DNA from: Arenicellales bacterium
Lineage (GTDB): Bacteria > Pseudomonadota > Gammaproteobacteria > Arenicellales > CBDCFT01
NCBI GenBank assembly: GCA_965216735.1
Contig: OZ244198.1
Location: 3,009,208-3,073,207, forward strand
Length of the DNA: 64,000 bases
Reading direction: 5' to 3'
Made by a program: the position numbers and the translations under genes. Shown in pieces: positions 14,671 to 48,062 of this stretch. How positions within the stretch are numbered: position 1 is the first letter of the stretch; every line of letters starts with the position of its first letter. Below the pieces are notes generated by a model. It made no database searches. It was not told the origin of the DNA and saw only the letters and a program-made list of their open reading frames with translations.

Positions 14671-15816
14671 TTAATTAACATAGGGTTGGTATGCGCCATC
14701 TTTCCACTGATACCAGATAAAACGGTGTTCGGTAAGATCGCCCTTTTCGGTGAAGGCGATAGGACCTAATACAGTATCAAACGTTTCATCGTGCAAAACG
14801 GCAATCACCTTTTCCGAATTCAACGTACCCGCTTGTTCCACCGCTTGCGCCCAAACCTGTATCGCTGCATAAGTGTGTAAGGTATAGCCTTCGGGTTCAT
14901 AGCCATTGCCACGAAAACGTTGCACGACGTCAGCCGCCGCAGGATGTTCGCGTGGATCGGCACCAAAGGTAAACAACGCCGACTGCCCAGCCATTCCGCT
15001 AATTTCCCAAAAATCAGTATTGTGCAGCGCATCGCCCGAGACTAGTTGAAATTCCAAACCTTGACTGTACGCCTGGCGCATTATCAACCCCGCTTCCCAA
15101 CTGTAACCGCCCAGATACAACACGTCGACTGCGTTGGCCTGTAGCATTTGGATGAGTTCTGAATACTCCCGGGATTGAGGATCATATTGGTCAAATACCG
15201 CCACCTTAATACCTTGCGCGTCTAACTCCTGTTTGGTTTGGTCTGCCAGGCCTTTACCGTAAATCGATCCGTCATGAACTATACCGATAGCGCGATTAGC
15301 GAATTGATTTGCCAAATAATCGCCGGCGATTTGGCCTTGCTGGTCGTCCCGGCCGCAAACGCGAAACACATTATTGAAACCTTGCTCAGTCAACAATGGA
15401 TTAGTCGCCGATGGAGAGATTTGAATAACGCCGGCCGAGTGGTATATCGATGAAGCCGCAATGGAAGCATCTGATCCGCGATGACCGGCGACGAACACCG
15501 CACCGTCATTAACCAATTTGCGCGCAACTGCCGCTGCCTGACCGGGATCGGCCGCGTCGTCTTCGACCGTCAACGCAACTTGCTGGCCCAACAATCCACC
15601 ATTGGCATTGAGATCGGCGACCGCCAACTCGGCGCCCCGGCGGGATTGTTCACCCGCCCATGCCCGTTCTTCGGTCAGCGGCGCAACCGTCGCTATTTTT
15701 ATTTCATCGGCAAAAGACGCACTATTCGTTTGACATAACAGAACGGCTGCTGTTACACCAAAACATCGTTTGAATACCTGACGCAGCACGCCACAGCAAC
15801 ATTGATTTAGTGCCAT
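14671..15816 (-). CDS. LivK/LivJ-type periplasmic solute-binding protein, orphan, co-oriented with the kinase
   Basis: DLNANGGLLG, ISPSATNP, FRVCGRDDQQG; GGAGG RBS before ATG 15816. Confidence 0.88.
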   Translation of the reverse strand: MALNQCCCGVLRQVFKRCFGVTAAVLLCQTNSASFADEIKIATVAPLTEERAWAGEQSRRGAELAVADLNANGGLLGQQVALTVEDDAADPGQAAAVARKLVNDGAVFVAGHRGSDASIAASSIYHSAGVIQISPSATNPLLTEQGFNNVFRVCGRDDQQGQIAGDYLANQFANRAIGIVHDGSIYGKGLADQTKQELDAQGIKVAVFDQYDPQSREYSELIQMLQANAVDVLYLGGYSWEAGLIMRQAYSQGLEFQLVSGDALHNTDFWEISGMAGQSALFTFGADPREHPAAADVVQRFRGNGYEPEGYTLHTYAAIQVWAQAVEQAGTLNSEKVIAVLHDETFDTVLGPIAFTEKGDLTEHRFIWYQWKDGAYQPYVN

Positions 15817-15925
15817 GATTCTTATCCTCCATTTATGATCGTAGCCTAGAACAACTTTCCCGTCCACAAGCGACAAGGTATGCTAGCCGGCAAAACAACG
15901 AGTAATACCCACTACTTTAGTAAAT

Positions 15926-22022: not shown

Positions 22023-24266
<2,244 letters not shown>

Positions 24267-24487: not shown

Positions 24488-26617
24488 ATGCAAAATCCGG
24501 AAAACGTTACTCGCATCCTATTTCAAGCTTTTCCCACCTGGATGTTGTTCATGTTCTACGTCGTCGCTATCACCGCCATTGTGGTGTTCGTCTATGGTTG
24601 CTACATACAGGTTCGAAAATACCGGCGCGGACAAGCGTTGATCGTGCCCCGTCTGAGTGCCGGTGTGTGGGGCATGGTAGAGGCGTTACTCAGCCACCGC
24701 ACCCTTAGGCGCCGTGACACCGCCGCCGGTCACAGCCACGCGTTGATTTTTTTTGGTTTCGCACTGTTGTTTATTGCCACCGCCATTATCACTCTGGAGT
24801 ACGATATTCTGGAACCATTGACCGGGATCCGATTCTGGTACGGTTCATTTTATCTCTGGTTTTCGCTGATAGTGGATATTGCAGGCCTGGCGCTAATCGT
24901 CGGATTGCTCTACATGATGTACCGGCGCAAATGGCTGGCCTTGCCCAAACTGGATTACACGCGACCGGACCGTACACCGGAAGAACCCGACTACGACCGG
25001 AGCTGGTATCGCAAGGAAGATTGGCTATTTCTATGGACGCTCATTTTGATCGGCATCACTGGTTTCGTATTAGAGGCGGACCGGCTGGTCTGGCTACAGC
25101 ATGACCCCACCGTGTGGGACTACCGTTGGTGGTCACCGATAGGCGCCGCACTGGCGCATGTCATGCTGAGTCTGGGTCTGTCACCGGAAGGAGCGGAGTC
25201 TTTTCGTTATTTTCTCTGGTGGTTGCACGGACTACTGGCCTTTGCTTTCATCGCGCTTATTCCCTTCACCAAGGTGAAACATATCTTTACCGCTATGGGC
25301 TCGCTGGCGGTGCGAGACCCGCTGCCGGCGGCGCGCTTGCCCAAGGCGGACCTCGAAGGCGAAAGCATCGGATACAAGCAGATCACGGATTTCAGTTGGA
25401 AACATCTTCTGCACCTGGATGCCTGCACCAAGTGCGGGCGTTGTCATGAAGCCTGCCCAGCCAACGCCACCGGTTTCCCGCTGTCGCCCCGCGATTTGGT
25501 GCTGTCGCTACGCGAGTTGTCGATAAATACGCTGGAGAAGCGGGCGATTCCCGAAGCCACGGCTCTGGTCGCCCAGGGCGGCAGTGTAAATCAGGTGCGT
25601 TCCGAGACCTTGTGGTCGTGTCGCACCTGCGCCGCCTGTCTTGAGATCTGCCCGGTGGGTATCGAACACGTACCCATGATCGTGGAAATGCGCCGGGCTC
25701 TCGTAGAAGACGGCGAAATGGAATCCACTGTACAGACCGCATTACAACAGATTCAGAATAAAGGTAATTCCTTCGGTGAAAACAAGCGTAAGCGGGCAGC
25801 ATGGGCTAAAAAACTTGACTTCACCATCAAGAATGCGCGCAAAGAAGCGGTGGATGTACTGTGGTTCGTCGGCGATTACGCGTCGTTCGATCCCCGTTAT
25901 CAGAAGGTTTCCATGGCTTTCGCCCGCATCCTGCACACCGCCGGCATCGATTTTGGGATTCTGTATGAGGCGGAAATGAACGCCGGCAACGATGCACGGC
26001 GGGTTGGCGAGGAAGGCTTGTATCAACACCTAGCCGAAACCAATATCAAGACTCTCGCTGACTGTGATTATAAACGCATCGTCACCACCGATCCCCACTC
26101 GTTCAATACCATCAAAAACGAATACCCGGAATTCGAAGGCACATTCGGAATCGAACATGCCAGCACATTCATAAAACGTCTGCTGGACGACGGCGCGATC
26201 AAACTTCCGCGTCGCCTCGACCGCCGTGTCACTTACCACGACCCGTGCCATTTGGGACGGCTCAACCGGGTATTCGATGCGCCGCGCGATGTGCTCAATA
26301 CGCTTGGCGCTGAGCTGGTCGAGATGGATCGCGCCCGGGAAAATTCTTTCTGCTGTGGCGCCGGTGGCGGCCGTATCTGGATGGCGGATCCGATCGATAA
26401 GGAAAAACCATCCGAAAACCGCATGCATGAGGCGGCTCGTATCGATGGCCTCGAAACGTTCGTGGTCGGTTGTCCGAAGTGCATGAACATGTTCGAAGAC
26501 TCGGTCAAATCGACCGGCAATGAAGCCAATATTCAAGTAAGGGAGTTAATCGAACTGGTCGAAGAATGTATGGAACCGGATACATCGCTGGACGTCGTTG
26601 AGGAAAAGCAAACATAA
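24488..26617 (+). CDS. Membrane-anchored Fe-S oxidoreductase (FadF/DgcB/ETF:quinone oxidoreductase EMO, HdrD-like)
   Basis: N-terminal multi-TM domain with His residues, CTKCGRCHEACP and CRTCAACLEICP, YHDPCHLGR, SFCCGAGGG. Confidence 0.9.
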   Translation: MQNPENVTRILFQAFPTWMLFMFYVVAITAIVVFVYGCYIQVRKYRRGQALIVPRLSAGVWGMVEALLSHRTLRRRDTAAGHSHALIFFGFALLFIATAIITLEYDILEPLTGIRFWYGSFYLWFSLIVDIAGLALIVGLLYMMYRRKWLALPKLDYTRPDRTPEEPDYDRSWYRKEDWLFLWTLILIGITGFVLEADRLVWLQHDPTVWDYRWWSPIGAALAHVMLSLGLSPEGAESFRYFLWWLHGLLAFAFIALIPFTKVKHIFTAMGSLAVRDPLPAARLPKADLEGESIGYKQITDFSWKHLLHLDACTKCGRCHEACPANATGFPLSPRDLVLSLRELSINTLEKRAIPEATALVAQGGSVNQVRSETLWSCRTCAACLEICPVGIEHVPMIVEMRRALVEDGEMESTVQTALQQIQNKGNSFGENKRKRAAWAKKLDFTIKNARKEAVDVLWFVGDYASFDPRYQKVSMAFARILHTAGIDFGILYEAEMNAGNDARRVGEEGLYQHLAETNIKTLADCDYKRIVTTDPHSFNTIKNEYPEFEGTFGIEHASTFIKRLLDDGAIKLPRRLDRRVTYHDPCHLGRLNRVFDAPRDVLNTLGAELVEMDRARENSFCCGAGGGRIWMADPIDKEKPSENRMHEAARIDGLETFVVGCPKCMNMFEDSVKSTGNEANIQVRELIELVEECMEPDTSLDVVEEKQT

Positions 26618-26628
26618 ATAAAGCTTTG

Positions 26629-27996
26629 ATGACCGACGATGTTTCTTTCAAGAAAATGCTGGACCAATCTCTCGACACTCAGGACCCGTTTATCGCCGCC
26701 GCGTGCCACCCCTACGCTAATCCCCACGAACGTCGGGCACTGGAAAGCGTTTTGTTCGCGACCACCAAACTGAGGCGGCAATTCGCACGGGCGATGTATA
26801 CCCCAACATCGGTGCTCGACAGTCTGGCTGCAGACAACGATAAACAGATCCGCTTGCGTGTTGCCAAACATCCAACCGCGACCCCGGCTACCCTGGCTAC
26901 TCTGGCGAGGACGGAGACCGCGGAAGTTGTGTGCGCGCGTATCGCCGGTCACCGGAATAGTCCCCAGGATACGCTGGTTCATTTATTCAAAAAACACCCG
27001 AATTCATTTGAGATCAAACGTGCCTTGTGCAACAACCCAAACACACCACAATCGCTGTTGCAACGGCTGGTGGTGGGTGCACCACTGACAGAACTCAAAG
27101 GCATTGCCCGCAATCCGCACGCAGACGACACCTTGTTGCGGTTGTGCTGGGAACAAAACGATCCGTATTTGCAAGCTGAAGTTTGCGCACACCCGAATTG
27201 TGCGCTTGAATTGCGCGCTGCCGCCGAGCGCGCACCGCACGCCTTGGTGCGCCGCAAGCTGGCACAGAATCCGGTGTTGCCGGATGCGGTGTTAATGCGT
27301 TTACTGGGCGATACCGAAGCCCAGGTTCGGGCTGCCGCGGTACGCCATTTGAGCGAGTCGATGATGGCGGAACTGGATTCCGGCGGCTATGACTCGTCCC
27401 GCCAGGTGCGGCGTGACGAGGCGCGCCATACCGGACTTCCGCTGGCATGGGTTATGCGTCTGGCTCGGGATACCGATTCTTGGGTGCGCCGTTTGATCGC
27501 ACGTAACCAAACAACGCCCGAGCATATACTGCATAGCTTAGCCCACGATGCCGTCATGGAAGTGCGGCGTGGTGTGGCGCGCAACCCGGTGTGCCCGACT
27601 AAGTTATTGCAACAGCTGGCGCGTGACTCTCACCCCTGGGTGCGTGCCGGTATAGCATTACGCGACGATATTGACGAACCGTTGATACTCGAATTGTCGC
27701 GAGATGACGATATCGACGTGTTATCGGCGCTGGGTAAGCATCCGCGTACCCCGCAGAAGATCCTTGAGCGCATCACCCGTCATGTGGATCGCGACGTCCG
27801 GCGGTCTGTGGTTTTGAACACGAGCGCGCCGCCCGGTGTGTTGCACGGGTTATTGGAAGATCCCTATCCGCTCAACCGGGTGTTGCTGGCCGGTCATCGT
27901 AATCTCGCCGACGCTGATTTGTATGGCTTGTTGCATGATCCGGAGCCCACGGTGCGTTTCGCCGGGGCACGCGCGCTGGCCGCGCGTTTACACTGA
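26629..27996 (+). CDS. LRV/HEAT-like helical repeat protein
   Basis: Many ~24-aa repeats of the form LAxDxxxxVRxxVAxNPxTPxxxL. Confidence 0.85.
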   Translation: MTDDVSFKKMLDQSLDTQDPFIAAACHPYANPHERRALESVLFATTKLRRQFARAMYTPTSVLDSLAADNDKQIRLRVAKHPTATPATLATLARTETAEVVCARIAGHRNSPQDTLVHLFKKHPNSFEIKRALCNNPNTPQSLLQRLVVGAPLTELKGIARNPHADDTLLRLCWEQNDPYLQAEVCAHPNCALELRAAAERAPHALVRRKLAQNPVLPDAVLMRLLGDTEAQVRAAAVRHLSESMMAELDSGGYDSSRQVRRDEARHTGLPLAWVMRLARDTDSWVRRLIARNQTTPEHILHSLAHDAVMEVRRGVARNPVCPTKLLQQLARDSHPWVRAGIALRDDIDEPLILELSRDDDIDVLSALGKHPRTPQKILERITRHVDRDVRRSVVLNTSAPPGVLHGLLEDPYPLNRVLLAGHRNLADADLYGLLHDPEPTVRFAGARALAARLH

Positions 27997-28116: not shown

Positions 28117-28914
28117 ATGAAAATTCTAGTGCCGGTAAAGCAGGTCGCTACAGTTGACGAGGACTGCGAGCTACGCGAGGACGGCAAGGATGTCGATCCC
28201 GATTACCTCGACTATGAACTGAACGAGTGGGACGACTACTCTTGGGAAGAAGCGTTGCGTTTGCATGAGGCCCACGGTGACGAGGTCGAGATCGTGCCCG
28301 TTACCGTCGGTCCCGAAGAAGCCGAAGACGGATTGCGTCGTTGTCTGGCCAAAGGCGGCGAACGCGCCATCCGCGTGTGGGACGACGCCCTCGAAGCGTC
28401 CGACCCAATGGCCATCGCGCGGGTGCTTGCGAAGGTCGTGCAACGCGAAAACCCGGATTTGGTTTTTGTAGGAACACTTTCCTCCGACCATGGTTTCGCC
28501 GCCACCGGTATGTGCCTGGCGGGTCTGCTCGGCTGGGCCCACGCGGCCGTGGTGTGTCAGTTGGGTATCAGCCCTGGTGCGCAACAGGTCACGTTACGCC
28601 GCGAATTGGAAGCGGGTCTGGAGGAAGAGATGACAGTGCAGTGTCCCGCCGTGCTCACCATTCAACTCGGCATTAATGAGCCACGCTACGCTTCGCTGCG
28701 CGGCATTAAACAAGCCAAGGCCAAACCCGTGGAGGTTCTGTCGCACACCGATCTGGGTCTGGACGATACCGAGGTTGGCGAATCCGGATCGCTGTCAAGG
28801 GTACGGCGAATGTTCGTCCCCGAACGCGGTCAGGCAGAGCTTATCGAGGGCACCCCTGCCGAGCAGGCGGCGCGCATCGCCGAAATCGTTAAAGAAGCAA
28901 CAGGAGCCGTGTAA
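28117..28914 (+). CDS. etfB: Electron transfer flavoprotein beta subunit
   Basis: MKILVPVKQV, LNEWDDYS, RRELEAG, INEPRYASLRGI. Confidence 0.95.
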   Translation: MKILVPVKQVATVDEDCELREDGKDVDPDYLDYELNEWDDYSWEEALRLHEAHGDEVEIVPVTVGPEEAEDGLRRCLAKGGERAIRVWDDALEASDPMAIARVLAKVVQRENPDLVFVGTLSSDHGFAATGMCLAGLLGWAHAAVVCQLGISPGAQQVTLRRELEAGLEEEMTVQCPAVLTIQLGINEPRYASLRGIKQAKAKPVEVLSHTDLGLDDTEVGESGSLSRVRRMFVPERGQAELIEGTPAEQAARIAEIVKEATGAV

Positions 28915-29876
28915 TGAGCGAAATTATGGTAGTAGCCGAACATCGCCGGGGTGAATTGACCGTGAGTACGCTTGAGGCCATCGCAGCGGCGCTCGAACTC
29001 AAACAAGCCAGGGACATGAGTGTCGCAGTGGCGGTGCTGGCCGCGGACCCGTCCGTCTTTACCAGCCAGGTGAGCGTAGCCGGTGTGGACGAAGTCATCA
29101 ATGCAACGGTTCCGGTCGCCGAATATCAAAACGATATTTACGAGGTAGTCGTAGACAGCTTGATTGATTCGCGCAAGCCGGCAGTGGTACTGGTGCCGCA
29201 TAGCATAGATGCCTGGGGTTATGCCCCGGCCCTCGCCGCGCGCCGCAAATGCGGTTTCGCCACCGACGTGTTTGGACTCAAATACGATGGTGACGACCTG
29301 GTCGCATCACGCGCCGCGTACAGCGAAAAAATGCATGTAGAACTCGACTTCCCCGGAAAACAGACCGTAGTTATCACACTGCGGGGTAACGTTTACAAAC
29401 CGGTGGAGGGAACCTCGACCCCCACGGTAACCAGTTTCGAAGCACCTACCATCGAAACCCATACAGAACATAAAGGCTTCGTAGAACCGGAATCCACCGG
29501 TGATGTAGACATCAGCCAGGCGGAGCTAATGCTGTCGGTCGGCCGGGGCGTGGCCGAAGAAGATAACGTTGAACAATACCAGGAACTTGCGGACGCCATG
29601 GGCTTTACCCTGGGTTGCTCGCGCCCCATCGCCGACAGTGGTTGGCTGCCCAAATCGCGTCAAGTCGGCCAGTCGGGCAAAACCGTCAGCAACTGTAATG
29701 TTTACCTGGCATTTGGTATCTCCGGTTCGGTTCAACATATGGCCGGCATGAAACATGTACCCAATATCATTGCGATCAATACTGACCCCGAGGCGTCGAT
29801 TTTTACCATAGCGCGTTATGGCGTGGTGGCCGATATGTTCGAGATCGCCGACGAGCTGAAAAACCACTTCGAATAA
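28914..29876 (+). CDS. etfA: Electron transfer flavoprotein alpha subunit
   Basis: GCSRPIADSGW, QVGQSGKTV, GISGSVQHMAGM; TAATG coupling to etfB. Confidence 0.95.
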   Translation: MSEIMVVAEHRRGELTVSTLEAIAAALELKQARDMSVAVAVLAADPSVFTSQVSVAGVDEVINATVPVAEYQNDIYEVVVDSLIDSRKPAVVLVPHSIDAWGYAPALAARRKCGFATDVFGLKYDGDDLVASRAAYSEKMHVELDFPGKQTVVITLRGNVYKPVEGTSTPTVTSFEAPTIETHTEHKGFVEPESTGDVDISQAELMLSVGRGVAEEDNVEQYQELADAMGFTLGCSRPIADSGWLPKSRQVGQSGKTVSNCNVYLAFGISGSVQHMAGMKHVPNIIAINTDPEASIFTIARYGVVADMFEIADELKNHFE

Positions 29877-29890
29877 TTCGAGTTCTAATA

Positions 29891-30943
29891 GTGGAAACGC
29901 TGGAACAAGCAAGAGCCAAGTACCGCATACGTAGTGTGCGCTGGGGTTTTTATTGGGCAATATGGTGCGCAGTCATGTGGGGTGCCTGGTATGTGCCGGG
30001 CACCGCCGTGTGGTATGAGGCGCCCTTCATCGCCATGGGTTCAGGAGGCCAGAGCGAGTTTTTGTTGGCCGCTGCGATAATCACGGCTTTCAGTTCACTG
30101 GCGATATTGTTTTTTCTGTTCCTGTGGATCGGCGTGTTGGAAAAATGGGGCGAATACGGCCGCACCATCCGACAGTTACGCATATCGAAATGGTACTACC
30201 TGGCCGCCGTGTTCGGTGGCCCCTGTGCCCTGTTTGGTTCTTACCTTGCGATTGGTTACGTGGGTCCGATTTTTGCCGCGATCGCAGCATTGATGTACCC
30301 GGTGGTAGGAGCGACACTGGCCCGGCTTTGGTATCACGAAAAAATCAGCACCCGCGCTGCGGCTGGAATTGCCGTCATTCTGATCGGGGGGATATCGATC
30401 TACGCGCCCGGCCTGTTGGACGAATTCTCAAACCCTGACGGCGGCGCATGGTTAGGTTATGTCGGTGGTCTCATGGCGGCCGTCGGCTGGGGCGTGGAAG
30501 GCGCTATCGCCGGACGAGCATTGGATGTCAGCGATCCCGACGTCGGTATCACGCTCAGGTTCACCGCCGAAGCCTTTTATTGGATATTCCTGATTCTGCC
30601 CGCGATTGGCCTGTTCAGCGACGCCGACGTGTTGTCGTTGATCGCGTCCGCATTCAACTTTTGGACTATGGTGTGGATAGCACTGGCCGGTGCCAGCTTC
30701 GCTTGTTGTTATGTGGCGTGGTACAAGTCTTTTCCCTTGATCGGTGTCGGCAGAGGGCAGGCAATCGGCGCGCTGTACGGAGTATTCGCAGTGATATTTC
30801 TTTCCATCTTCACCCTGGATTTGCCTGAATGGTATTTCTTGATCGGCTTGACACTGGCGATCTCCGGCGGATTCATCATGTTCACCGAACGCGCCGAGAT
30901 GCTTGAAGTAATACGCAGTGCGGATCCCGTCTCGGCCGGTTAA
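29891..30943 (+). CDS. DMT/EamA-superfamily permease resembling the methanogen trimethylamine permease MttP
   Basis: About 10 TM helices; CAVMWGAWYVPG, GWGVEGAIAG, CYVAWYKSFPLIGVGRGQAI match my recollection of MttP. Confidence 0.8.
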   Translation: METLEQARAKYRIRSVRWGFYWAIWCAVMWGAWYVPGTAVWYEAPFIAMGSGGQSEFLLAAAIITAFSSLAILFFLFLWIGVLEKWGEYGRTIRQLRISKWYYLAAVFGGPCALFGSYLAIGYVGPIFAAIAALMYPVVGATLARLWYHEKISTRAAAGIAVILIGGISIYAPGLLDEFSNPDGGAWLGYVGGLMAAVGWGVEGAIAGRALDVSDPDVGITLRFTAEAFYWIFLILPAIGLFSDADVLSLIASAFNFWTMVWIALAGASFACCYVAWYKSFPLIGVGRGQAIGALYGVFAVIFLSIFTLDLPEWYFLIGLTLAISGGFIMFTERAEMLEVIRSADPVSAG

Positions 30944-30945
30944 AC

Positions 30946-31242
30946 ATGAAGAAATTACACATGAAAGGATTCATTCTTCGGCTGTTGGATAGAAACAAGG
31001 ATGGGCTATGGGACTACGAAATCGCGCGCGAGGTGCTGGCCGAGTATTGTCACTCGGGCGGCTACTGGCGTGGCGAGGTCCGTGCCACCCTGACGGATCT
31101 ATTTTCCGGTGCACTGCTGGAGGAAATCGAGGACCGGCTGGATGACGGTGAACACTTTGGCACCGGCAAGGTGTTAGTCAAGTTCAAGTTGACGCCGTTC
31201 GGACGCAAGAGGATGATCGAAACCGGACTGCGAGCTAGCTAA
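30946..31242 (+). CDS. Small conserved (winged-helix-like) protein resembling the ORF that follows mttP in methanogens
   Basis: Starts 2 nt after the permease; MKGFILRLL...WDYEI...FKLTPFGRKR pattern. Confidence 0.7.
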   Translation: MKKLHMKGFILRLLDRNKDGLWDYEIAREVLAEYCHSGGYWRGEVRATLTDLFSGALLEEIEDRLDDGEHFGTGKVLVKFKLTPFGRKRMIETGLRAS

Positions 31243-31265
31243 CAATCATCACGAGGGTATAAGAT

Positions 31266-31376
31266 ATGTCGGAATTCTGGGGTTTTGCGGGTGCGGATAT
31301 ATTGGCCACTGCGCTCATTTTTGGTTTGTGTGTCATGTGCTTATACCAGGCCAGAACCTGGGTAAAAAAGCTTTGA
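31266..31376 (+). CDS. 36-aa single-pass membrane peptide (below the ORF-track cutoff)
   Basis: MSEFWGFAGADILATALIFGLCVMCLYQARTWVKKL*; GAGGG RBS upstream; fills the operon gap. Confidence 0.65.
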   Translation: MSEFWGFAGADILATALIFGLCVMCLYQARTWVKKL

Positions 31377-31414
31377 CATAGCACACGTACGAATGAACAC
31401 AGCGATGATGCGTC

Positions 31415-31828
31415 ATGAGTGAATTAACCGGGGGTTGTCTATGTGGCGAGGTTCGATACCGCACGAAAGGTACGATACACAAGGTGGTTCATTGCCACTG
31501 TAGCATGTGTCGCAAACCGAGCGGCGCTGCATTCGCGACGTTTGTCGGATTATTTGACCGTGATGTTAGTTTTACAAAAGGAACACCGATGCCCTATCGT
31601 TCATCCGCCAATGGGGTGCGCGGTTTTTGCGCTCGCTGCGGCAGTTCGTTGACTTTCAAAGATGAAAACGACCCAGATATGCTTTGGCTGACGATGGGCA
31701 GTCTGGATCAACCAGATGCCGTCAACCCCGGTGAACACTGGTTTGCGGCAGACAAGCTGAGCTGGCTACATCTTGATGATGATTTGCCCCGTTACCCGGC
31801 GTACGGCAATACCTCCGAATCCGAGTAG
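31415..31828 (+). CDS. GFA/CENP-V family (glutathione-dependent formaldehyde-activating-like) protein
   Basis: GGCLCG, HCHCSMCRK, RGFCARCGS zinc motifs. Confidence 0.9.
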   Translation: MSELTGGCLCGEVRYRTKGTIHKVVHCHCSMCRKPSGAAFATFVGLFDRDVSFTKGTPMPYRSSANGVRGFCARCGSSLTFKDENDPDMLWLTMGSLDQPDAVNPGEHWFAADKLSWLHLDDDLPRYPAYGNTSESE

Positions 31829-31886
31829 CTACTAGTAGTTTTTTAGATTCAACCCGACGATTCATGAACTCGCCGGGCAACACTTT

Positions 31887-32996
31887 TTAAACCACCCGTT
31901 TATCTTTATTCGGATCGTAAAACGGTAGCGTATGTGTTGTTGCACTACAGCTTACATTCGGACCCTTGACTTCCACTTTGACATCGGGTTTCGCCAACTC
32001 GGCGTCAATTCGAACTATTGCCAAAGACTGATTCATGATAGTCGAGTACATCGGTTGCGTGACAACACCTACGTTTTTACCGTCTACGATCAATTCCGCA
32101 TCCGCGTCGACGGCGGTTTCGCAATCTGCAACGATACCAAATACTTTGACTTTTTCTTTGCCGATCGCCGCCATCAGTGCTTCTTTGCCGCGATAATCGG
32201 ATTGTTTTTTCTTCGACACCGCAAAATCGAGACCGGCTTCCCACGGTGTGTGCTCCTCGTTTATATCGAAGGGATAAAACAACAATCCCGCCTCGACCCG
32301 GATCATGTCCAGACAATTGAACGAACAAGCCATGACACCATGAGGCTTGCCGTGTTCGAGGATGTTGTCCCAGATCGAGCCCGCGTCCGCACCTTTGGTA
32401 AAAATCTCATAACCGCGCTCGCCGGAAAAACCGGTGCGCGAAACAACACAGTTGTGTCCGAACAGTGTGGTGGGGACCTGATGAAAGTATTTAAGTTTTG
32501 GCAGATCGATCGGAGTATGTTCGTTGAGAATATCGACGGCCTTTGGGCCTTGGAACGAAAGGTCGTGTAAATCGTCGTCGAAGTGAATACTAACTTCTTT
32601 ACCTTTAGCTGATTTTTCGATTTGTTCCATGGCCGTGCCGCCGCCATGCACAAACATCACATGATTCGGCATTATATGAAACGCTATACAGTCATCCGTG
32701 TAACGACCTTCCTCGTTAAGTACCATAGCAAAGACGGAACGTCCCGGAGTTATCTTGCTCATGTCGCGGGTGATAACATGGTCGACAACAGCTAATGCAT
32801 CGGGTCCGGTTATATGCAATTTCTTGAGACCGGATACATCGAATAGTCCGGCGGCAGTTCGTACCGCGCGGTGTTCTGCGTTAACATCCTGGTCGTACTC
32901 CCAGGCAACATCCATGTCGTTCCAGTCGCCAAGGTTAGAACCAAGCGCACGATGTCTGTCTGCTAATACTGATTGTCTCGGGCTGGGCATACTCAT
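31887..32996 (-). CDS. THF-dependent aminomethyltransferase (GcvT family, DmmD-like)
   Basis: DWNDMDVAW, AAGLFDVSGLKK, FDDDLHDLSFQGP, SRTGFSGERGYE, LPFYDP. Confidence 0.88.
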   Translation of the reverse strand: MSMPSPRQSVLADRHRALGSNLGDWNDMDVAWEYDQDVNAEHRAVRTAAGLFDVSGLKKLHITGPDALAVVDHVITRDMSKITPGRSVFAMVLNEEGRYTDDCIAFHIMPNHVMFVHGGGTAMEQIEKSAKGKEVSIHFDDDLHDLSFQGPKAVDILNEHTPIDLPKLKYFHQVPTTLFGHNCVVSRTGFSGERGYEIFTKGADAGSIWDNILEHGKPHGVMACSFNCLDMIRVEAGLLFYPFDINEEHTPWEAGLDFAVSKKKQSDYRGKEALMAAIGKEKVKVFGIVADCETAVDADAELIVDGKNVGVVTQPMYSTIMNQSLAIVRIDAELAKPDVKVEVKGPNVSCSATTHTLPFYDPNKDKRVV

Positions 32997-33390: not shown

Positions 33391-34695
33391 ATGAACAAAT
33401 CAGATAAGTCACTTTTTCAAACTAATATCGGACGCCGTAAATTTTTAGGTGCCACCGCTGCGGGTATTGGAACTGCGATGACGGCGGGGTTTCCGCGCTT
33501 TGGTTTCGCCGATTCCAAAACCGTTAAGATCGGTATGAACATCCCAATGACAGGTGACTATGCCCCGTGGGGATTGCCCGGTCTTTATGGGTGCGAAATC
33601 GTTGCCAATAGTATTAACGCCAATGGCGGCATAACGGTCGGGAGCGACAACTATATGATCGAGATTGCCGCGTATGATCACGCCTATGACACCGAAAAAG
33701 CGATACAGGGTTATAAAAAGTTAGTGTTAGAAGACGAAGTCGAGATGGTGATGATGCTGGGTGGTTCGACGGTCGCATCGGTACTGCCCTGGGCGCACAG
33801 AAAAAAAATGCTGACAAACACTCTTTTGCCCAGCGATATTACACCTGATACACCGTATCTTACCGCAACTTCCGAATCGCATCCGCTATACAACGTCACC
33901 GGGGTTGAGTGGTTGGCAGAAAATTTTCCGGATGCCAAAACAGCGGTCATTGTCACCACCGATGATATTGAATATGGGAAGCAGTCTGCGGCTACGTACA
34001 AAGCGGCATTTGAAGTGGCGGGTATTGAAGTACTGGATACCAACTTCCATGGCTTCGACGTTACTGACTTCGCCCCCATCGTAAGTTCTCTACTGGCCAA
34101 CAAACCGGATATCTTCTGCATGGCCACGGATGTTTATACCACACCACTGGTTGAACAGCTGTTTCATCAAGGGTTCGAGGGTAAAATCGTATCTTGCACC
34201 CTTGATCTCTATGAAGAGGTCATCGCCAAGACCAGTCAGGATTTTGTGGAAGGTTTGATCTTTCAGTTCCCGGACTTCGATGATCCTGCACTGGAGTCTA
34301 ACGATCAGGTTTACTTCCCGAGTCCCAGCCCCGGTGAATTCGATGCGGCATTCAAGAAAGATCACGCAGGTGAATGGTCGGCAGTGGCATGGGAATACCC
34401 GTCTAGTTTGCAGATTTGGGCCGATACAGCGGTTGCCGCCGGCAGTATTGAGCCGATGGATGTTCTTGAGACGTTAAAAGCAAATCCAACACCATCACAT
34501 GCTTTTGGACCGGCTAATTGGTGGGGCAAAGATTTGTGGGGACAGGACAATGCCGTTATTGGTCATTGGCCGGTCGTCACCATGCAGGGTGGACGGGCTC
34601 GCATCGTTGAGTTTAGAAACGTCTATGACTGGTTACAAAAAAATACTGATGTGTTGAAGAAACACATGCAGGAATTAGACTTAAGGACGGTCTAA
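33391..34695 (+). CDS. ABC transporter substrate-binding protein (Liv/HAAT family), Tat signal
   Basis: GRRKFLG twin-arginine leader; INANGGI; TDFAPIVSSLLA. Confidence 0.9.
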   Translation: MNKSDKSLFQTNIGRRKFLGATAAGIGTAMTAGFPRFGFADSKTVKIGMNIPMTGDYAPWGLPGLYGCEIVANSINANGGITVGSDNYMIEIAAYDHAYDTEKAIQGYKKLVLEDEVEMVMMLGGSTVASVLPWAHRKKMLTNTLLPSDITPDTPYLTATSESHPLYNVTGVEWLAENFPDAKTAVIVTTDDIEYGKQSAATYKAAFEVAGIEVLDTNFHGFDVTDFAPIVSSLLANKPDIFCMATDVYTTPLVEQLFHQGFEGKIVSCTLDLYEEVIAKTSQDFVEGLIFQFPDFDDPALESNDQVYFPSPSPGEFDAAFKKDHAGEWSAVAWEYPSSLQIWADTAVAAGSIEPMDVLETLKANPTPSHAFGPANWWGKDLWGQDNAVIGHWPVVTMQGGRARIVEFRNVYDWLQKNTDVLKKHMQELDLRTV

Positions 34696-34709
34696 TTTTA
34701 TGAGTTCGT

Positions 34710-34742
34710 AAAAAAGGGGAAAGCGTGGCTTTCCCCTTTTTT
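34710..34742 (+). terminator. Intrinsic terminator/stabilising hairpin after the SBP gene
   Basis: AAAAAAGGGGAAAGC-GTG-GCTTTCCCCTTTTTT. Confidence 0.85.
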
Positions 34743-34780
34743 AGAAGAATAATAATTTGTTATCCACAAAAGGAAACGCA

Positions 34781-35650
34781 GTGGAGCTATTCCTTCAGTC
34801 TATTGTCAACAGCCTAATTCAAGGTGGTTTTTTTGTTCTTTGGGCCGTTGGTTTAGTACTCATATTCGGTGTAATGGGGGTGGTGAACTTTGCACATGGC
34901 GAACTGGTCATGGTGGGTGCCTACACCATCTGGTTACTACATGCCCAAAACGGGGTTCCGTTTTTGGTGGCCTTGGTCATTGCGGTTATTGTCGTGATGA
35001 TGATCGGCTTATTAATGGAACGGTTTTTATTTCGCCCCAAACGAGACGACCCTTTGGGAGGATTGATTTGTTCCATCGGTGTTTTATTTATTCTGCAGGT
35101 TGTTGCACACGTCGTCGGTGGAACCGGGCCGTCGAAACAAGTACCCCCGCCATTTCACGGAACATTGATTCTGTTCGATTTCCTTCGCATCCCCTACCAA
35201 CGGCTGTTCGCCATTGGGGTGTCCGCTGCGGCTCTGGCATTACTGTGGTATTTCCTGACTCGAACGAAACTCGGATGGTCCTTGCGCGCGGTAGCACTTG
35301 ACAGAGAGGCGTCCGCGTTACAAGGGATTAATATCAACCGCACTTCCATGATCGCTATCGGTGTTGGCACCGCGATGGCCGGCCTTGCCGGTGGCTTGAT
35401 GGCGCCACTGACGAATATCAATCCACACATGGGTCACAATGTCATTATTACCGCCTTTATCGTTACCATCGTTGGCGGTGTCGGCAGTTTGTCCGGTGCT
35501 GTGATGGCGGGCATTCTTTATGCTGTTTTTCATACCTTTATCACTGCCTACTTTAGCGGAGTGATCGCCACCATATGCGGATTGCTTATCATGGTCGTGG
35601 TATTGATCTTCAAACCGACCGGTATCATGGGCACCCAGGTGAGCGAATAA
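34781..35650 (+). CDS. ABC permease, LivH-like
   Basis: GLVLIFGVMGVVNFAHGE, IVGGVGS; GTG start. Confidence 0.92.
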   Translation: MELFLQSIVNSLIQGGFFVLWAVGLVLIFGVMGVVNFAHGELVMVGAYTIWLLHAQNGVPFLVALVIAVIVVMMIGLLMERFLFRPKRDDPLGGLICSIGVLFILQVVAHVVGGTGPSKQVPPPFHGTLILFDFLRIPYQRLFAIGVSAAALALLWYFLTRTKLGWSLRAVALDREASALQGININRTSMIAIGVGTAMAGLAGGLMAPLTNINPHMGHNVIITAFIVTIVGGVGSLSGAVMAGILYAVFHTFITAYFSGVIATICGLLIMVVVLIFKPTGIMGTQVSE

Positions 35651-35654
35651 AATA

Positions 35655-36698
35655 GTGAACACCGGATTAAAAAAAGCAATCGGCCTGGTTGTCTTTCTGA
35701 CGGGTCTTTCGATCTTGCCGCATTTCCTCAAATTTCATCACCAGGATCTCATGATTTTTTTGGTGATCAATGTACTGGTGGTCGTGAGTTACCGCCTGGT
35801 CACACTCACCGGTGAATGGTCGTTAATCCATATCATCATGATGGGAGTGGGCGCCTATACTAGTGCCTTGTTGACAAAACAATTCGATATTTCGTTCTGG
35901 ATCAGTATGCCACTGGCCGGCATGGTCGCAGCCGCGATCGCGGCGTTACTTTGTTTTCCGCTATTTCGCACCAGCCAATTCTATTTTCTAATCGGATCAT
36001 TTGCTGCAGGAGAGGCGATACGGTTGTGCTGGACTTATTTTGTAAAACCCTTCGGAGGTTCAAGCGGCTTGAGTACCATACCCGGTCCGGAGGCCCCGGC
36101 GTTCACGAGTATAGACTTTCTAGACCCTATTCCCTATTACTATTTATGTCTGGCAGTCGTTACTCTCTGCCTGTTTATCCTCTATCGTATTGAGAATTCG
36201 CGTGTCGGCCTGACTCTGAATGCCGTCCACTGGAAGGCTCCGCTGGCGGAGTCGGTGGGAGTTAATACATGGCGGTACCGCTCGCTCGCTTTCATTATCG
36301 GATCTTTGTTTGTTGGCATCGCTGGCGCGTTGAAAGTACATTATCTGGGCACCGTAACTCCTCATCAGTTTGGCATCGGGGTGATGGTGTTTGTTCTCGT
36401 TTGGGTCATTGTCGGTGGCTACACCACATTCTATGGGCCCATTTTGGGAGTAGTCGTTTTAACCATTCTTGATGAATCGTTTCGCGGTTTTGAAGATATC
36501 CGTCCGGCCATCTACGGAGCAATCCTGATCGCCTCTATTATGTTCCTTCCTGCAGGTTTGGAAAGTTTACCCGGCAAAATCATGACCTGGCTCGGCATTG
36601 GGCGATCAGACGAGGAAGAAGGGCTGCGCTACGGTGCGGATGGGAAACGGTTGGAACAGGAAAGGACTTCATTGTGGTATTTATTCCGTAAACCCTGA
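35655..36698 (+). CDS. ABC permease, LivM-like
   Basis: [31 protein letters not shown]. Confidence 0.9.
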
Positions 36699-36741
36699 AT
36701 TTCCTAATACAAACAAAAATAATTTATACGGAAAATATCCG

Positions 36742-37497
36742 ATGGCTGTACTTGAAATTAAAAATGTGACCAAACACTTCGGTGGTCTGACCGCGCTTAA
36801 TGATGTCAGTTTCCAAGTAGAGCAAGGTGAAATACGCGGATTGATTGGACCAAACGGTGCCGGGAAAAGCACCATGTTCAAAAATATCGCGGGCTTCTAC
36901 TCACCGACTAAAGGAGAGATTATTTATCAAGAGCGAAATATCGCGGGGATGCCGCCGAGCGCTGTAGCGGCATTAGGTATTGTGCGCACCTTTCAGGAAA
37001 CAACTTTATTCCAGGAGTTAACGGTCTTTGAGAATGCTCTGGTCGGTTGCCACATCAAGGCTCGCTCAAACATATTTTCAGCAATCTTCGGTATCGATAG
37101 CGCAAAACAAAAACGTGCAAAAGAGAAGGCCCTTGAAGTATTGGAATTTATGGGTATGTCGAAGAGGAAAGATCAACTTGCATCAGCATTGCCATTAGGA
37201 TCCCAGCGCACCCTTGCAATATCCATTGCGCTCACGGCCGAACCAAAAATTCTGTTAATGGACGAACCATTTGCCGGTATGAATCCGGAAGAAACCAGTC
37301 ATATGATGGAATTGACTAAGAAGGTGCGGGAATCTGGAATTACCATCGTGCTCGTCGAACATGATATGAAAGCGGTCATGGGATTGTGCAATTATCTCAC
37401 CGTACTCAATTTCGGACAGTTGCTGGCGGAAGGTACACCTGAAGAAATCCGGAATAATGAACAGGTGATCGAAGCCTATCTGGGTAGGGCAAACTAA
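36742..37497 (+). CDS. ABC ATPase, LivG-like
   Basis: [32 protein letters not shown]. Confidence 0.93.
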
Positions 37498-37498
37498 C

Positions 37499-38206
37499 AT
37501 GCTGTTACAAATAAAAGATGTTCATGTTCACTATCAAAAAGTAGCAGCCATTAAAGGCATTTCCATGGAAGTGGGGGAATCCGATTTTGTCACTCTGATT
37601 GGATCGAACGGCGCAGGCAAAAGCACGACATTACGCACGATATCGGGTTTGGAGCATCCAAGTGCCGGAGAGATTCACTTCGATGGAAAGCGAATTGACA
37701 AACTTCCCGCGGACAAAATCCTGAAACTCGGCATTGCTCACGTCCCGGAAGGACGTCGTGTATTCAAGGGCCTGACAGTATATGAAAATTTGCAGCTCGG
37801 TGCATTTGTTCGGGATGACACTGACGAAATTGAAAAAGATCTGGAAAATGTATTCGAACGCTTTCCACGTTTACGCGAGCGTAAAGATCAACTGGCTAAA
37901 ACCATGAGTGGCGGCGAACAACAGATGCTGGCTATCGGCCGTGCCCTGATGTCGAAGCCACGTTTGCTGTTACTCGATGAGCCTTCCCTAGGGATAGCAC
38001 CCATCATCGTTCAGGACATTGCGCGTATTTTACGGGAAATAAATAAACAAGGCGTTTCCATCGTTTTGGTGGAACAGAATGCCGAACTGGCATTAGAACT
38101 TGCGTGTCACGGTTACGTATTGGAAACAGGAACGATAGCCCTGGAAGGCGAAGCGAAAGGCCTGGCTGACAACGAGCACGTTAAGAAAGCATACTTAGGA
38201 ATATAA
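37499..38206 (+). CDS. ABC ATPase, LivF-like
   Basis: GSNGAGKST, VPEGRRVF, MSGGEQQMLA, LDEPSLG. Confidence 0.94.
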   Translation: MLLQIKDVHVHYQKVAAIKGISMEVGESDFVTLIGSNGAGKSTTLRTISGLEHPSAGEIHFDGKRIDKLPADKILKLGIAHVPEGRRVFKGLTVYENLQLGAFVRDDTDEIEKDLENVFERFPRLRERKDQLAKTMSGGEQQMLAIGRALMSKPRLLLLDEPSLGIAPIIVQDIARILREINKQGVSIVLVEQNAELALELACHGYVLETGTIALEGEAKGLADNEHVKKAYLGI

Positions 38207-43314: not shown

Positions 43315-44196
43315 ATGGCCCAGTCTAACAAACCCATCAGTGCTTTGCGCCAGCGCATGATTGACGACATGACGCTACGTCAGTTACATCCCAACACACA
43401 ACGCGCCTACCTACTCGCCGTTAAGAAGCTCACGCAGTTTTTGGGTAGCGCGCCCGATGGCGCATCGTCGGAGGATCTGCGTCGGTTCCAAAAACACCTC
43501 GTTGAGCAGGGGGTGTCGAGTCCGACCATCAACGCTACGATCCGTGGATTGCGGTTCTTCTTCGAGATCACCTTGGAGCGCCCACAGAGGCTCAAACGGA
43601 TGAGTCCGGTGCGCGTGCCGGAGCGTTTGCCGGTGGTCTTAAGTAGCGAAGACGTTACCCGTTTATTGAACAGCGCACCGAACCTGAAGTCCAAAGCGGC
43701 GTTGTCGGTGGCCTACGGCGCCGGCTTACGGGCCAGCGAAGTCTGTCACCTGAAGATCACGGACATCGATAGTGAACGAATGATCATCCGCATCGAGCAA
43801 GGTAAAGGCGCGCGTGACCGTCAAGCGATGCTCTCACCGGCGTTACTGTGTTTACTGCGTGCCTGGTGGCGGGAAGGCCGGCGCCGCGGCAAGATGCTGC
43901 CTAATGGTTGGCTTTTCCCGGGCATGAACCCCGTCAATCCACTCTCGCCACGTCAACTCAATCGGATGTGCAAAGTGGCCGCAGCGGCGGCCGAGTTGGA
44001 TCAACGGATCTCCCTGCACACCTTGAGGCACAGCTTCGCAACGCACTTGCTGGAGCAAAAAATCGACATCCGGATTATTCAAGTATTACTCGGCCATAAG
44101 AAGCTGACCACCACGGCACGCTACGCCCATGTCGCCTCCAAGACCTTGACCGAAGTACAAAGTCCCCTCGACAGGTTAACCTTACCCGTGCCGTAA
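43315..44196 (+). CDS. Tyrosine recombinase (phage integrase family)
   Basis: GAGLRASE, GKG, HTLRHSFATHLLE, LLGH, TTARY; AGGAG RBS before ATG 43315. Confidence 0.95.
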   Translation: MAQSNKPISALRQRMIDDMTLRQLHPNTQRAYLLAVKKLTQFLGSAPDGASSEDLRRFQKHLVEQGVSSPTINATIRGLRFFFEITLERPQRLKRMSPVRVPERLPVVLSSEDVTRLLNSAPNLKSKAALSVAYGAGLRASEVCHLKITDIDSERMIIRIEQGKGARDRQAMLSPALLCLLRAWWREGRRRGKMLPNGWLFPGMNPVNPLSPRQLNRMCKVAAAAAELDQRISLHTLRHSFATHLLEQKIDIRIIQVLLGHKKLTTTARYAHVASKTLTEVQSPLDRLTLPVP

Positions 44197-44197
44197 G

Positions 44198-45355
44198 GTG
44201 GCACGGCCATCGCTTGAGGTGGCAGACATTTTTAGACAAGACGGCGAGACCTGGCGCCAGGCACACGCAGGCCATATCAGCCTGGGCCAACTCCAAGTCA
44301 TGTCTGCCATCGAACGCTGCCGAACCGATGCGCTCGGCGGCCATCGCCTGCACTGCGAGCAGTGCGATGATCAGCGCATTGCCTATAACTCGTGTCGCAA
44401 CCGCCATTGTCCGAAGTGTCAAGGACAAAAGGCCGAACAATGGTTGGCGGATCGCCAGGGCGAACTGGTGCCGGTGGCCTATTACCATGTGGTGTTCACC
44501 CTGCCAGCCCAGATTGCCCGCATCGCCTATCAGAATAAAGCACTGGTGTATGATCTGCTGCTGCGAGTCAGTGCCGAAACACTGTCGATCATCGCAGCCG
44601 ATCCCAAACACCTCGGCGCCAAGATCGGGCTGACCGCGGTGCTGCATACGTGGGGATCCGCCATGATCCATCACCCCCACGTCCACTGCATCGTCCCCGG
44701 GGGCGGACTCGATCGGAATCGGTGGGTGGCGTGCAAACCAGGGTTCTTCCTGCCGGTACGGGTTTTGTCGCGATTGTTCCGCCGCCTGTTCCTTGCGCAG
44801 CTTCATCGCCTGCATCGCGAAGATCAGCTCAACTTCTTCGGTGATTTAAACCACCTCGCCAGCCGCAACGCATTTACACAGTATTTAGCACCGCTCAAGC
44901 AAACCAACTGGTTCGTCTATGCCAAAAAGCCCTTTGCCGGACCCCAAGCGGTGCTCGCTTACCTGTCTCGCTATACCCACCGCGTGGCCATCTCCAATCA
45001 TCGATTGATTGCCTACGATGAAACCGGTGTGACGTTCCAATACAAGGACTATCGCTCTAAACGCTGTGTACGCTACAAACCCATGACGCTCGCCACCGAT
45101 GAGTTCATCCGCCGCTTCTTGATGCACGTGCTACCCAAGGGGTTGCATCGCATCCGTCACTACGGCTTGTTCGCTAATCCCGTACGGCGTGATCATTTGA
45201 CCCGACTGCGCCAGGCACTGAACGCACAGAACACGCCCTGCGAACCTAACGTTGAAGCATCCGCAACGGCGCCACCCACGTTCGTGTGCCACACCTGTGG
45301 AACACCACTGCAGATCGTCGAAATACTCAGCCCCAAGACAAGGGCACCCCCTTGA
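44198..45355 (+). CDS. IS91-family (Y2/HUH) transposase with zinc-binding domain
   Basis: YNSCRNRHCPKCQ, LHTWG, HPHVH, YLSRY. Confidence 0.95.
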   Translation: MARPSLEVADIFRQDGETWRQAHAGHISLGQLQVMSAIERCRTDALGGHRLHCEQCDDQRIAYNSCRNRHCPKCQGQKAEQWLADRQGELVPVAYYHVVFTLPAQIARIAYQNKALVYDLLLRVSAETLSIIAADPKHLGAKIGLTAVLHTWGSAMIHHPHVHCIVPGGGLDRNRWVACKPGFFLPVRVLSRLFRRLFLAQLHRLHREDQLNFFGDLNHLASRNAFTQYLAPLKQTNWFVYAKKPFAGPQAVLAYLSRYTHRVAISNHRLIAYDETGVTFQYKDYRSKRCVRYKPMTLATDEFIRRFLMHVLPKGLHRIRHYGLFANPVRRDHLTRLRQALNAQNTPCEPNVEASATAPPTFVCHTCGTPLQIVEILSPKTRAPP

Positions 45356-45679
45356 CGTTCCTTCGTGCCGACATAAAATGGGACAACGCGAATCCGTGTT
45401 GGCGCTCTGCTATTACCCCAACCGAACCCACTATCCCCTACCTACCACTACCCGCAACAAATCTATCTGTAAATCGAACCCATCAGGCGTTGATCACGTC
45501 GGCTCACCACCCGCTGACGTCTACATCCAGCACATTAATGACCATCATCCCTGAATAATCCCCATAGCCAGCAAACCGCGGTTTCCTCCCCTGGACGTTA
45601 TTCGACACCCGCTCCCAACGCAGCGCATTCACTGCGCGTGCCGCCTCCGCGGCCGTCCAATAACGCTAATCACAAGCGC

Positions 45680-46519
45680 ATGATTGACGACATGACGCTA
45701 CGTCAGTTACATCCCAACACACAACGCGCCTACCTACTCGCCGTTAAGAAGCTCACGCAGTTTTTGGGTAGCGCGCCCGATGGCGCATCGTCGGAGGATC
45801 TGCGTCGGTTCCAAAAACACCTCGTTGAGCAGGGGGTGTCGAGTCCGACCATCAACGCTACGATCCGTGGATTGCGGTTCTTCTTCGAGATCACCTTGGA
45901 GCGCCCACAGAGGCTCAAACGGATGAGTCCGGTGCGCGTGCCGGAGCGTTTGCCGGTGGTCTTAAGTAGCGAAGACGTTACCCGTTTATTGAACAGCGCA
46001 CCGAACCTGAAGTCCAAAGCGGCGTTGTCGGTGGCCTACGGCGCCGGCTTACGGGCCAGCGAAGTCTGTCACCTGAAGATCACGGACATCGATAGTGAAC
46101 GAATGATCATCCGCATCGAGCAAGGTAAAGGCGCGCGTGACCGTCAAGCGATGCTCTCACCGGCGTTACTGTGTTTACTGCGTGCCTGGTGGCGGGAAGG
46201 CCGGCGCCGCGGCAAGATGCTGCCTAATGGTTGGCTTTTCCCGGGCATGAACCCCGTCAATCCACTCTCGCCACGTCAACTCAATCGGATGTGCAAAGTG
46301 GCCGCAGCGGCGGCCGAGTTGGATCAACGGATCTCCCTGCACACCTTGAGGCACAGCTTCGCAACGCACTTGCTGGAGCAAAAAATCGACATCCGGATTA
46401 TTCAAGTATTACTCGGCCATAAGAAGCTGACCACCACGGCACGCTACGCCCATGTCGCCTCCAAGACCTTGACCGAAGTACAAAGTCCCCTCGACAGGTT
46501 AACCTTACCCGTGCCGTAA
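45680..46519 (+). CDS. Tyrosine recombinase copy 2, 5'-truncated (lacks native RBS and MAQSNKPISALR)
   Basis: Identical to copy 1 from MIDDMTL onward. Confidence 0.8.
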   Translation: MIDDMTLRQLHPNTQRAYLLAVKKLTQFLGSAPDGASSEDLRRFQKHLVEQGVSSPTINATIRGLRFFFEITLERPQRLKRMSPVRVPERLPVVLSSEDVTRLLNSAPNLKSKAALSVAYGAGLRASEVCHLKITDIDSERMIIRIEQGKGARDRQAMLSPALLCLLRAWWREGRRRGKMLPNGWLFPGMNPVNPLSPRQLNRMCKVAAAAAELDQRISLHTLRHSFATHLLEQKIDIRIIQVLLGHKKLTTTARYAHVASKTLTEVQSPLDRLTLPVP

Positions 46520-46520
46520 G

Positions 46521-47678: not shown

Positions 47679-48062
47679 CGTTCCTTCGTGCCGACATAAA
47701 ATGGGACAACGCGAATCCGTGTTGGCGCTCTGCTATTACCCCAACCGAACCCACTATCCCCTACCTACCACTACCCGCAACAAATCTATCTGTAAATCGA
47801 ACCCATCAGGCGTTGATCACGTCGGCTCACCACCCGCTGACGTCTACATCCAGCACATTAATGACCATCATCCCTGAATAATCCCCATAGCCAGCAAACC
47901 GCGGTTTCCTCCCCTGGACGTTATTCGACACCCGCTCCCAACGCAGCGCATTCACTGCGCGTGCCGCCTCCGCGGCCGTCCAATAACGCTAATCAAAAAG
48001 AGTCCCTTTCTGTAATAGCTAAATCAGTCTGTTACCGATTTGATTTCGGACGAGCTAATTCG

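Follow-up and report, generated by a model that had tools for sequence, protein, structure and literature searches.

We describe here a three-gene transport locus in a stretch of 64,000 nucleotides from an Arenicellales bacterium (contig OZ244198.1 of assembly GCA_965216735.1, positions 3,009,208 to 3,073,207, forward strand), which is referred to below as the window and whose host genome is designated G000. Three consecutive open reading frames (ORFs) of this window are, as we hold with good confidence, the bacterial orthologues of MttP, MttQ and MttS, and the complex that they encode would most likely import trimethylamine (TMA) for the trimethylamine dehydrogenase (Tmd) of the same operon. 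A first-pass annotation had described the first two of these ORFs; both exist at 29891-30943 and 30946-31242, and the three permease motifs that it quoted are all found in the 350-aa translation. The third, a 36-aa ORF at 31266-31376, was not listed there. The three genes are the following:

29891..30943, + strand: mttP, DMT/DME-type permease of 350 aa with a GTG start (homology to Methanolobus MttP; Pfam EamA; LicB)
30946..31242, + strand: mttQ, predicted cytoplasmic winged-helix subunit of 98 aa with an ATG start (methanogen-only hidden Markov model, fused homologues, AlphaFold2 fold)
31266..31376, + strand: mttS, predicted single-transmembrane subunit of 36 aa (methanogen-only hidden Markov model, synteny, alignment, complex model)

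The names come from Methanosarcina mazei. According to the available part of a preprint (bioRxiv 10.64898/2025.12.02.691841), MttPQS of this methanogen corresponds to MM_1691, MM_1692 and MttS/sORF05, MttP being a DME-family permease, MttQ a protein of 97-98 aa encoded 1 bp downstream of mttP, and MttS a 49-aa protein with one transmembrane helix, encoded 18 bp further. As reported there, the three proteins co-purify, the complex confers TMA uptake on E. coli, and an mttS deletion mutant grows poorly on TMA; the extracellular helix of MttS is proposed to act as a TMA-recognising lure. The same part of the text states that MttQ and MttS are absent from bacteria and limited to methylotrophic methanogens.

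The permease is a homologue of methanogen MttP

The resemblance to MttP that the first-pass annotation had pointed out was borne out by the searches. The profile search returned two named archaeal proteins, and the permease was 49% identical over 346 residues (E 2e-98) to one of them, the Methanolobus protein P0364, and 38% identical to the other, a Methanococcoides paralogue (P0340). When one genome per species was scanned with P0364, 79 loci were obtained, of which 76 were from methanogens (Methanosarcinales and Methanomassiliicoccales) and three from Rhodobacteraceae. In the locus of P0364 itself (L002), and in the Methanosarcina loci L021 and L033, mttP is surrounded by mttC, mtbC, mtbB and an mttB gene that is interrupted by an in-frame stop. 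Since these neighbours are present and the gene order agrees with that given in the available part of the preprint, we take the three as true mttP loci.

General-purpose databases say less about this protein. Its sole Pfam match is EamA (PF00892), with 32.6 bits against a cut-off of 28.2 and covering residues 188-331, that is, the C-terminal half, and NCBIfam yielded no match. A hydropathy scan, which is crude and gives no formal helix count, disclosed at least eight hydrophobic stretches. The only solved structure matched by sequence was LicB (PDB 7B0K), a permease of the DMT superfamily (E 7.6e-6, residues 71-330). Public homologues carry the names 'DMT family transporter' or 'hypothetical protein', and many of them are about 456-486 residues long, as compared with about 350 for the permease of the window.

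The two small ORFs are homologues of MttQ and MttS

The first-pass annotation had also likened the 98-aa ORF to the small gene that follows mttP in methanogens, and the homology was found in both directions. Of the 76 archaeal loci, 42 gave a tblastn match to the 98-aa protein (E ≤8e-5, 23-37% identity) in the stretch immediately following mttP. Conversely, a hidden Markov model (HMM) built from 71 methanogen sequences only, taken from 71 of the 76 loci, matched ORF 30946-31242 with an E value of 4.7e-16, while the runner-up among the 1060 ORFs of the window (at least 20 aa, six frames) scored 3.8. The best hits thus go beyond generic EamA exporters, and the small ORF does have mttP-linked homologues.

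Natural fusions provide a further line of evidence. The 98-aa protein aligned with the C-terminal ~95 residues of two fused homologues of 458-460 aa, P0068 (Roseovarius) and P0033, with 63% and 66% identity, respectively, and distant representatives of the permease family (27-35% identical, 447-472 aa) likewise bear the MttQ domain at their C-terminus. Since P and Q are separate genes in one genome and a single polypeptide in another, they are best regarded as a functional unit. The suggestion that the small protein is a subunit is therefore backed by these fusions, together with the co-purification described for M. mazei in the available part of the preprint (bioRxiv 10.64898/2025.12.02.691841). 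In the distant branch of the family (P0208, P0213, P0215-P0217, P0222, P0224 and P0227) the MttQ-like domain was always fused, and P0219 (555 aa) shows a proline/alanine-rich insert within the Q domain. A listing of mttP as separate 'N-term' and 'C-term' proteins appears for Methanomassiliicoccus luminyensis in a figure legend (PMC5688252); it may reflect either a P/Q split or an in-frame amber codon.

The third gene was recognised in the same way. An HMM built from 68 distinct methanogen MttS sequences only, from 69 of the 76 loci, matched ORF 31266-31376 with an E value of 7.4e-6 (21.9 bits), the runner-up among the same 1060 ORFs reaching 0.078. In the alignment, bacterial and archaeal MttS have in common an aromatic N-terminal motif (F-W-G-F versus Y-W-A-N), a hydrophobic transmembrane helix, and a C-terminal L-Y/W-Q-A-R-T-F/W motif. 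The 59 distinct bacterial MttS ORFs that we collected are strikingly alike. Consequently, the portable two-gene module proposed in the first-pass annotation has to be amended in one respect, since MttS follows and the genes are three; the rest of that proposal stands, the module recurring in varied catabolic contexts and in both domains.

The operon and its surroundings

As had been noticed from the first, it is tmd, rather than genes for pyrrolysine (Pyl) methyltransferases, that accompanies the pair. The product of tmd matched trimethylamine dehydrogenase (PDB 1DJN/2TMD) over its full length (residues 2-729) with 1298.8 bits, and we found no MttB-family gene within the 64-kb window. Neither MTTB nor B12-binding matches were obtained among the ten ORFs around mttPQS that were scanned against Pfam and NCBIfam. 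The genome G000 as a whole contains 13 matches to PF06253 (the MttB family), for example at C1:2881238-2882746, 2753397-2763716 and 2928196-2929680. Twelve are full length, no in-frame stop occurs in any of the 13, and the closest lies about 80 kb away; they are non-pyrrolysine methyltransferases of the MttB superfamily. The other genes of the region are as follows:

22074..24266, + strand: tmd, trimethylamine dehydrogenase of 730 aa, an old yellow enzyme (OYE)-like FMN, 4Fe-4S and ADP-binding flavoprotein (PDB 1DJN/2TMD match; Pfam Oxidored_FMN plus OYE-like second domain)
24488..26617, + strand: membrane-anchored Fe-S protein with two CCG domains, 709 aa (Pfam CCG, 4Fe-4S dicluster)
26626..27996, + strand: LRV/HEAT-repeat protein of 456 aa (Pfam LRV, LRV_2, HEAT)
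28117..28914, + strand: etfB, electron transfer flavoprotein (ETF) beta (Pfam ETF, 122.7 bits)
28914..29876, + strand: etfA, ETF alpha (Pfam ETF_alpha and ETF)
31415..31828, + strand: GFA-family protein of 137 aa (Pfam GFA, 87.2 bits)
31887..32996, - strand: GcvT-like aminomethyltransferase of 369 aa (Pfam GCV_T, 235.6 bits)

The genes are closely spaced, with 15 nt between the etfA stop and the mttP start, 2 nt between mttP and mttQ, and 23 nt between mttQ and mttS, which is preceded by GAGGG. A scan of positions 31200-32000 for terminators and promoters gave counts no higher than those in shuffled sequences. The 709-aa Fe-S/CCG protein had weak NCBIfam matches to TfrB, TmcB and DsrK, and to QmoC across its N-terminal part. 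The LRV/HEAT gene was found in eight bacterial loci of tmd context and was missing from the Rhodobacteraceae ones. A homologue of the GcvT-like protein, 53-55% identical, sits between etfA and mttP in the loci L075, L077 and L078.

Distribution of the module in bacteria

When metagenomes were scanned with an alignment of the bacterial homologues, 340 relatives were found, and the best 80 loci were kept; with the three Rhodobacteraceae loci and one from a genome of the class to which the window belongs, the set comprises 84 bacterial loci, 53 of them of at least 8 kb. A locus was considered assessable for Q or S if a match was present or if enough downstream DNA was available. Q was present in 79 of the 80 assessable loci, fused to P in six and separate in 73, and S followed Q in 76 of 77.

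The genes adjoining the module point repeatedly to TMA. Genes for Tmm-like flavin-containing monooxygenases adjoin 28 of the 84 loci, and five of these 28 have in addition a gene for a DUF1989+GCV_T protein, an architecture that we take to be that of the trimethylamine N-oxide (TMAO) demethylase Tdm, while two also have Tmd. Genes for Tmd, ETF and/or the Fe-S protein adjoin 19 loci, and Pyl-type MtbB and/or MttB adjoin two. None of the neighbour classes listed here and below was seen in 23 loci, mostly on short contigs. One metagenome contig of bacterial appearance (L114, 4234-12334) carries mttPQS amid genes for a Pyl-type dimethylamine methyltransferase (Dimeth_Pyl), an APC-family permease, a DUF2284 protein and MttB; the Dimeth_Pyl frame breaks off at 352 aa, as an in-frame stop would cause it to do, and the locus represents a methyltransferase context outside the methanogen loci.

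Phylogeny of the permease

Two trees were compared. In a quick tree of 61 rows, from which rows at least 80% identical to a kept row had been dropped and which was rooted on the distant fused forms, the archaeal MttP clade (SH-aLRT 99) was nested in a bacterial grade. In a tree of 26 hand-picked rows (13 bacterial, eight archaeal and five outgroup), the bacteria fell on one side of a branch with a support of 47. Archaeal MttP was thus one well-supported clade (SH-aLRT 99-100), and its nesting inside the bacterial sequences varied with the data set. We therefore do not claim a donor between the two domains.

A model of the complex and a proposed mechanism

In a three-chain model of the complex with MttS as the scored partner, a score of 0.81 was obtained, whereas the best control reached 0.02. 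This mark is attained by 116 of 157 solved complexes and by two of 215 mismatched pairs, a calibration that is only rough here because the model has three chains and was built on our own alignments. Contact agreement between runs was at least 97%, and the partner pLDDT at least 84. In the model, MttS runs along permease residues 14-47, 75-83, 258-279 and 303-310, and its residues 32-36 touch residues 39-47 (third helix) of MttQ. The model supports binding, short of proof. It also fits MttS as an N-out, C-in peptide with a basic tail meeting the cytoplasmic subunit, which is what the preprint, in its available part, predicts for the archaeal complex.

On these grounds we propose the following mechanism. 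MttP would be a membrane permease of DMT fold, MttQ a soluble winged-helix protein docked on its cytoplasmic face, and MttS a single helix packed on MttP, with the aromatic N-terminus outside and the basic C-terminus inside and touching MttQ. Together they would most likely bring TMA into the cytoplasm, where the Tmd that appears to be co-transcribed would oxidise it to dimethylamine and formaldehyde and pass the electrons on to EtfAB. From there the electrons would probably reach the quinone pool through the membrane Fe-S/CCG protein, the putative acceptor. Going by what is known of their families, the GFA and GcvT-like proteins may handle the formaldehyde that Tmd releases. At neutral pH most TMA is protonated, and Tmd and ETF are cytoplasmic enzymes. 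For these reasons an importer makes sense in a tmd operon.

A more far-reaching reading may be considered, although we lean slightly against it in its full form. MttPQS would then be no methanogen invention but a widespread and mobile TMA import module serving every known bacterial TMA route (Tmd/ETF, Tmm-Tdm and Pyl-type MttB), and thereby the missing importer of aerobic TMA oxidisers, including the marine ones, with MttQ acting as a cytoplasmic gate or sensor. Because bacterial MttS is devoid of the extracellular helix, that helix would not, on this broader reading, be a general determinant of TMA specificity.

Evidence against a TMA importer and alternative explanations

Several observations weigh against the interpretation of the three genes as an MttPQS importer of TMA. 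The functional data for the archaeal system stem from an unreviewed preprint. Bacterial MttS has 36 residues as compared with 48-49 in Methanosarcinales, about 13 N-terminal residues being missing, and since the missing part is the extracellular, TMA-recognising helix proposed in the available text of that preprint, the role of MttS may differ in bacteria. One locus (L125) has neither Q nor S. In the 3-kb locus from the class of the window (L081, G119:C103:1-3004), the mttP homologue, 59% identical, is followed by no Q; about 170 nt further on there is a second mttP-like gene, 56% identical over its first 97 residues, which ends at the contig end. The module is rare in that class, the permease having been detected at E ≤1e-40 in two of the 400 genomes scored, G000 included and G248 left out. 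Finally, PAS plus phospholipase-C-type genes adjoin 11 of the 84 loci and Amt genes three; neither kind of neighbour is clearly specific to TMA, and different members of the family may therefore have different substrates.

The last point leads to an explanation that we consider unlikely, namely that the same tripartite transporter carries another small amine (dimethylamine, methylamine, TMAO or choline) or works as an exporter, for example of the dimethylamine produced by Tmd. It would account for the loci in which the module lies beside Amt and glutamine-amidotransferase genes, or beside the PAS and phospholipase-C-type genes, and it agrees with the existence in methanogens of a paralogue clade only 38% identical (P0340) and with the nature of the solved structure closest in sequence, LicB, which we take to be a choline transporter (the PDB title names no substrate). 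However, with Tmd and ETF presumably both in the cytoplasm, TMA must enter the cell, and the module recurs beside three routes, Tmd, Tmm and MttB, that all start from TMA. As to the direction of transport, DMT/DME transporters are mostly known as exporters according to the accessible part of the preprint (bioRxiv 10.64898/2025.12.02.691841), but the archaeal orthologue is reported in the same place to import TMA in E. coli.

The structure of MttQ raises a second alternative, that this protein is mainly a PadR-like transcription factor of the operon and lies beside the permease only for co-regulation, which we regard as very improbable. The AlphaFold2 model (mean pLDDT 94.5) displays a winged helix plus a C-terminal helix, a beta hairpin being set between the first three helices and the last one, and its best Foldseek matches in the PDB were winged-helix, DNA-binding regulators of the RosR, PadR and MarR families (TM 0.55-0.66, E 1e-3 to 2e-2), none of them at E ≤0.001. 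Nevertheless, no Pfam or NCBIfam family, those of regulators included, matched MttQ at E ≤0.01, and six of the 79 bacterial loci, like many homologues in the databases, have Q covalently fused to the permease. Moreover, the third helix (39-47), which reads DNA in such regulators, touches MttS in the model of the complex, and MttQ of M. mazei co-purifies with MttP according to the available part of the preprint (bioRxiv 10.64898/2025.12.02.691841). A generic EamA exporter followed by chance small ORFs, as the bland public names and the weak EamA match confined to the C-terminal half might suggest, can practically be dismissed, since methanogen-only HMMs single out both small ORFs among the 1060 of the window and the gene order is kept in nearly all assessable bacterial loci (Q in 79 of 80, S in 76 of 77).

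Other features of the window

Just downstream of the tmd-mttPQS region, at 33391-38206, lies a five-gene ATP-binding cassette transporter of the branched-chain-amino-acid/urea type (a binding protein, two permeases and two ATPases), and another such binding protein is encoded at 14671-15876. The window also contains a perfect tandem duplication, 43352-45672 being repeated at 45675-47995 with a spacing of 2323 nt. In both copies a gene for a tyrosine recombinase (Phage_integrase) precedes one for an IS91-type Y2 transposase (Y2_Tnp, Zn_Tnp_IS91), and the duplication could have arisen by rolling-circle tandem transposition or be an assembly artefact.

Significance

In the literature searched we found neither a description of bacterial MttPQS, although the supplement of the preprint may hold a search for homologues, nor a paper linking a DMT/MttP-type permease to bacterial tmd or tmm. 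The confinement of MttQ and MttS to methanogens, as stated in the available part of the preprint (bioRxiv 10.64898/2025.12.02.691841), is wrong, and their presence in bacteria weakens the evolutionary scenario presented there. TMA uptake by bacteria has hardly been described, and mttPQS offers a concrete three-gene candidate, to which the published assay of the archaeal system can be applied. Bacterial MttS, being naturally shorter, moreover lends itself directly to testing the role proposed for the extracellular helix. The turnover of TMA is important for the cycling of nitrogen and carbon in the sea, and it also bears on the levels of TMA and TMAO in the gut, as pointed out in the accessible text of the preprint (bioRxiv 10.64898/2025.12.02.691841).

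Comparison with known systems

The closest known system is MttPQS of M. mazei, to which, as far as it is described in the available part of the preprint, the locus of the window can be compared gene by gene. The three genes and their order are shared, with gaps of 2 nt versus 1 bp between P and Q and of 23 nt versus 18 bp between Q and S. In both there is a DMT/DME permease, a Q protein (98 aa in the window) composed of helices plus a beta hairpin, and a one-helix S with the same C-terminal motif; in both the genes belong to a TMA-catabolism operon, and P-Q fusions exist in both domains. The differences concern the host, which is a bacterium, the partner, which is trimethylamine dehydrogenase plus ETF instead of Pyl-type MttB plus MttC, and the length of S (36 versus 49 residues), most of the proposed extracellular helix being missing. 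P is 49% and Q about 23-37% identical to the methanogen proteins. Judged by its sequence, mttPQS is nonetheless a member of the MttPQS system, all three defining parts being homologous.

The other systems that come into consideration share single components with the locus. LicB (PDB 7B0K/7PAF), which we assume to be the choline transporter of Streptococcus pneumoniae and thus also to carry a small methylated amine cation, belongs to the same DMT superfamily but is very distant and has no MttQ or MttS partners. The PadR, RosR and MarR regulators resemble MttQ in fold (three helices, a beta-hairpin wing and a C-terminal helix), whereas MttQ matches no sequence family and is fused or, by prediction, bound to a membrane permease. 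Lastly, trimethylamine dehydrogenase and its ETF (PDB 1DJN, 2TMD and 1O94, presumably from Methylophilus methylotrophus W3A1) have their counterparts in the adjacent tmd, which is closely homologous over its whole length, and in the ETF genes of the same operon, and it is this resemblance that gives the transporter its metabolic context.

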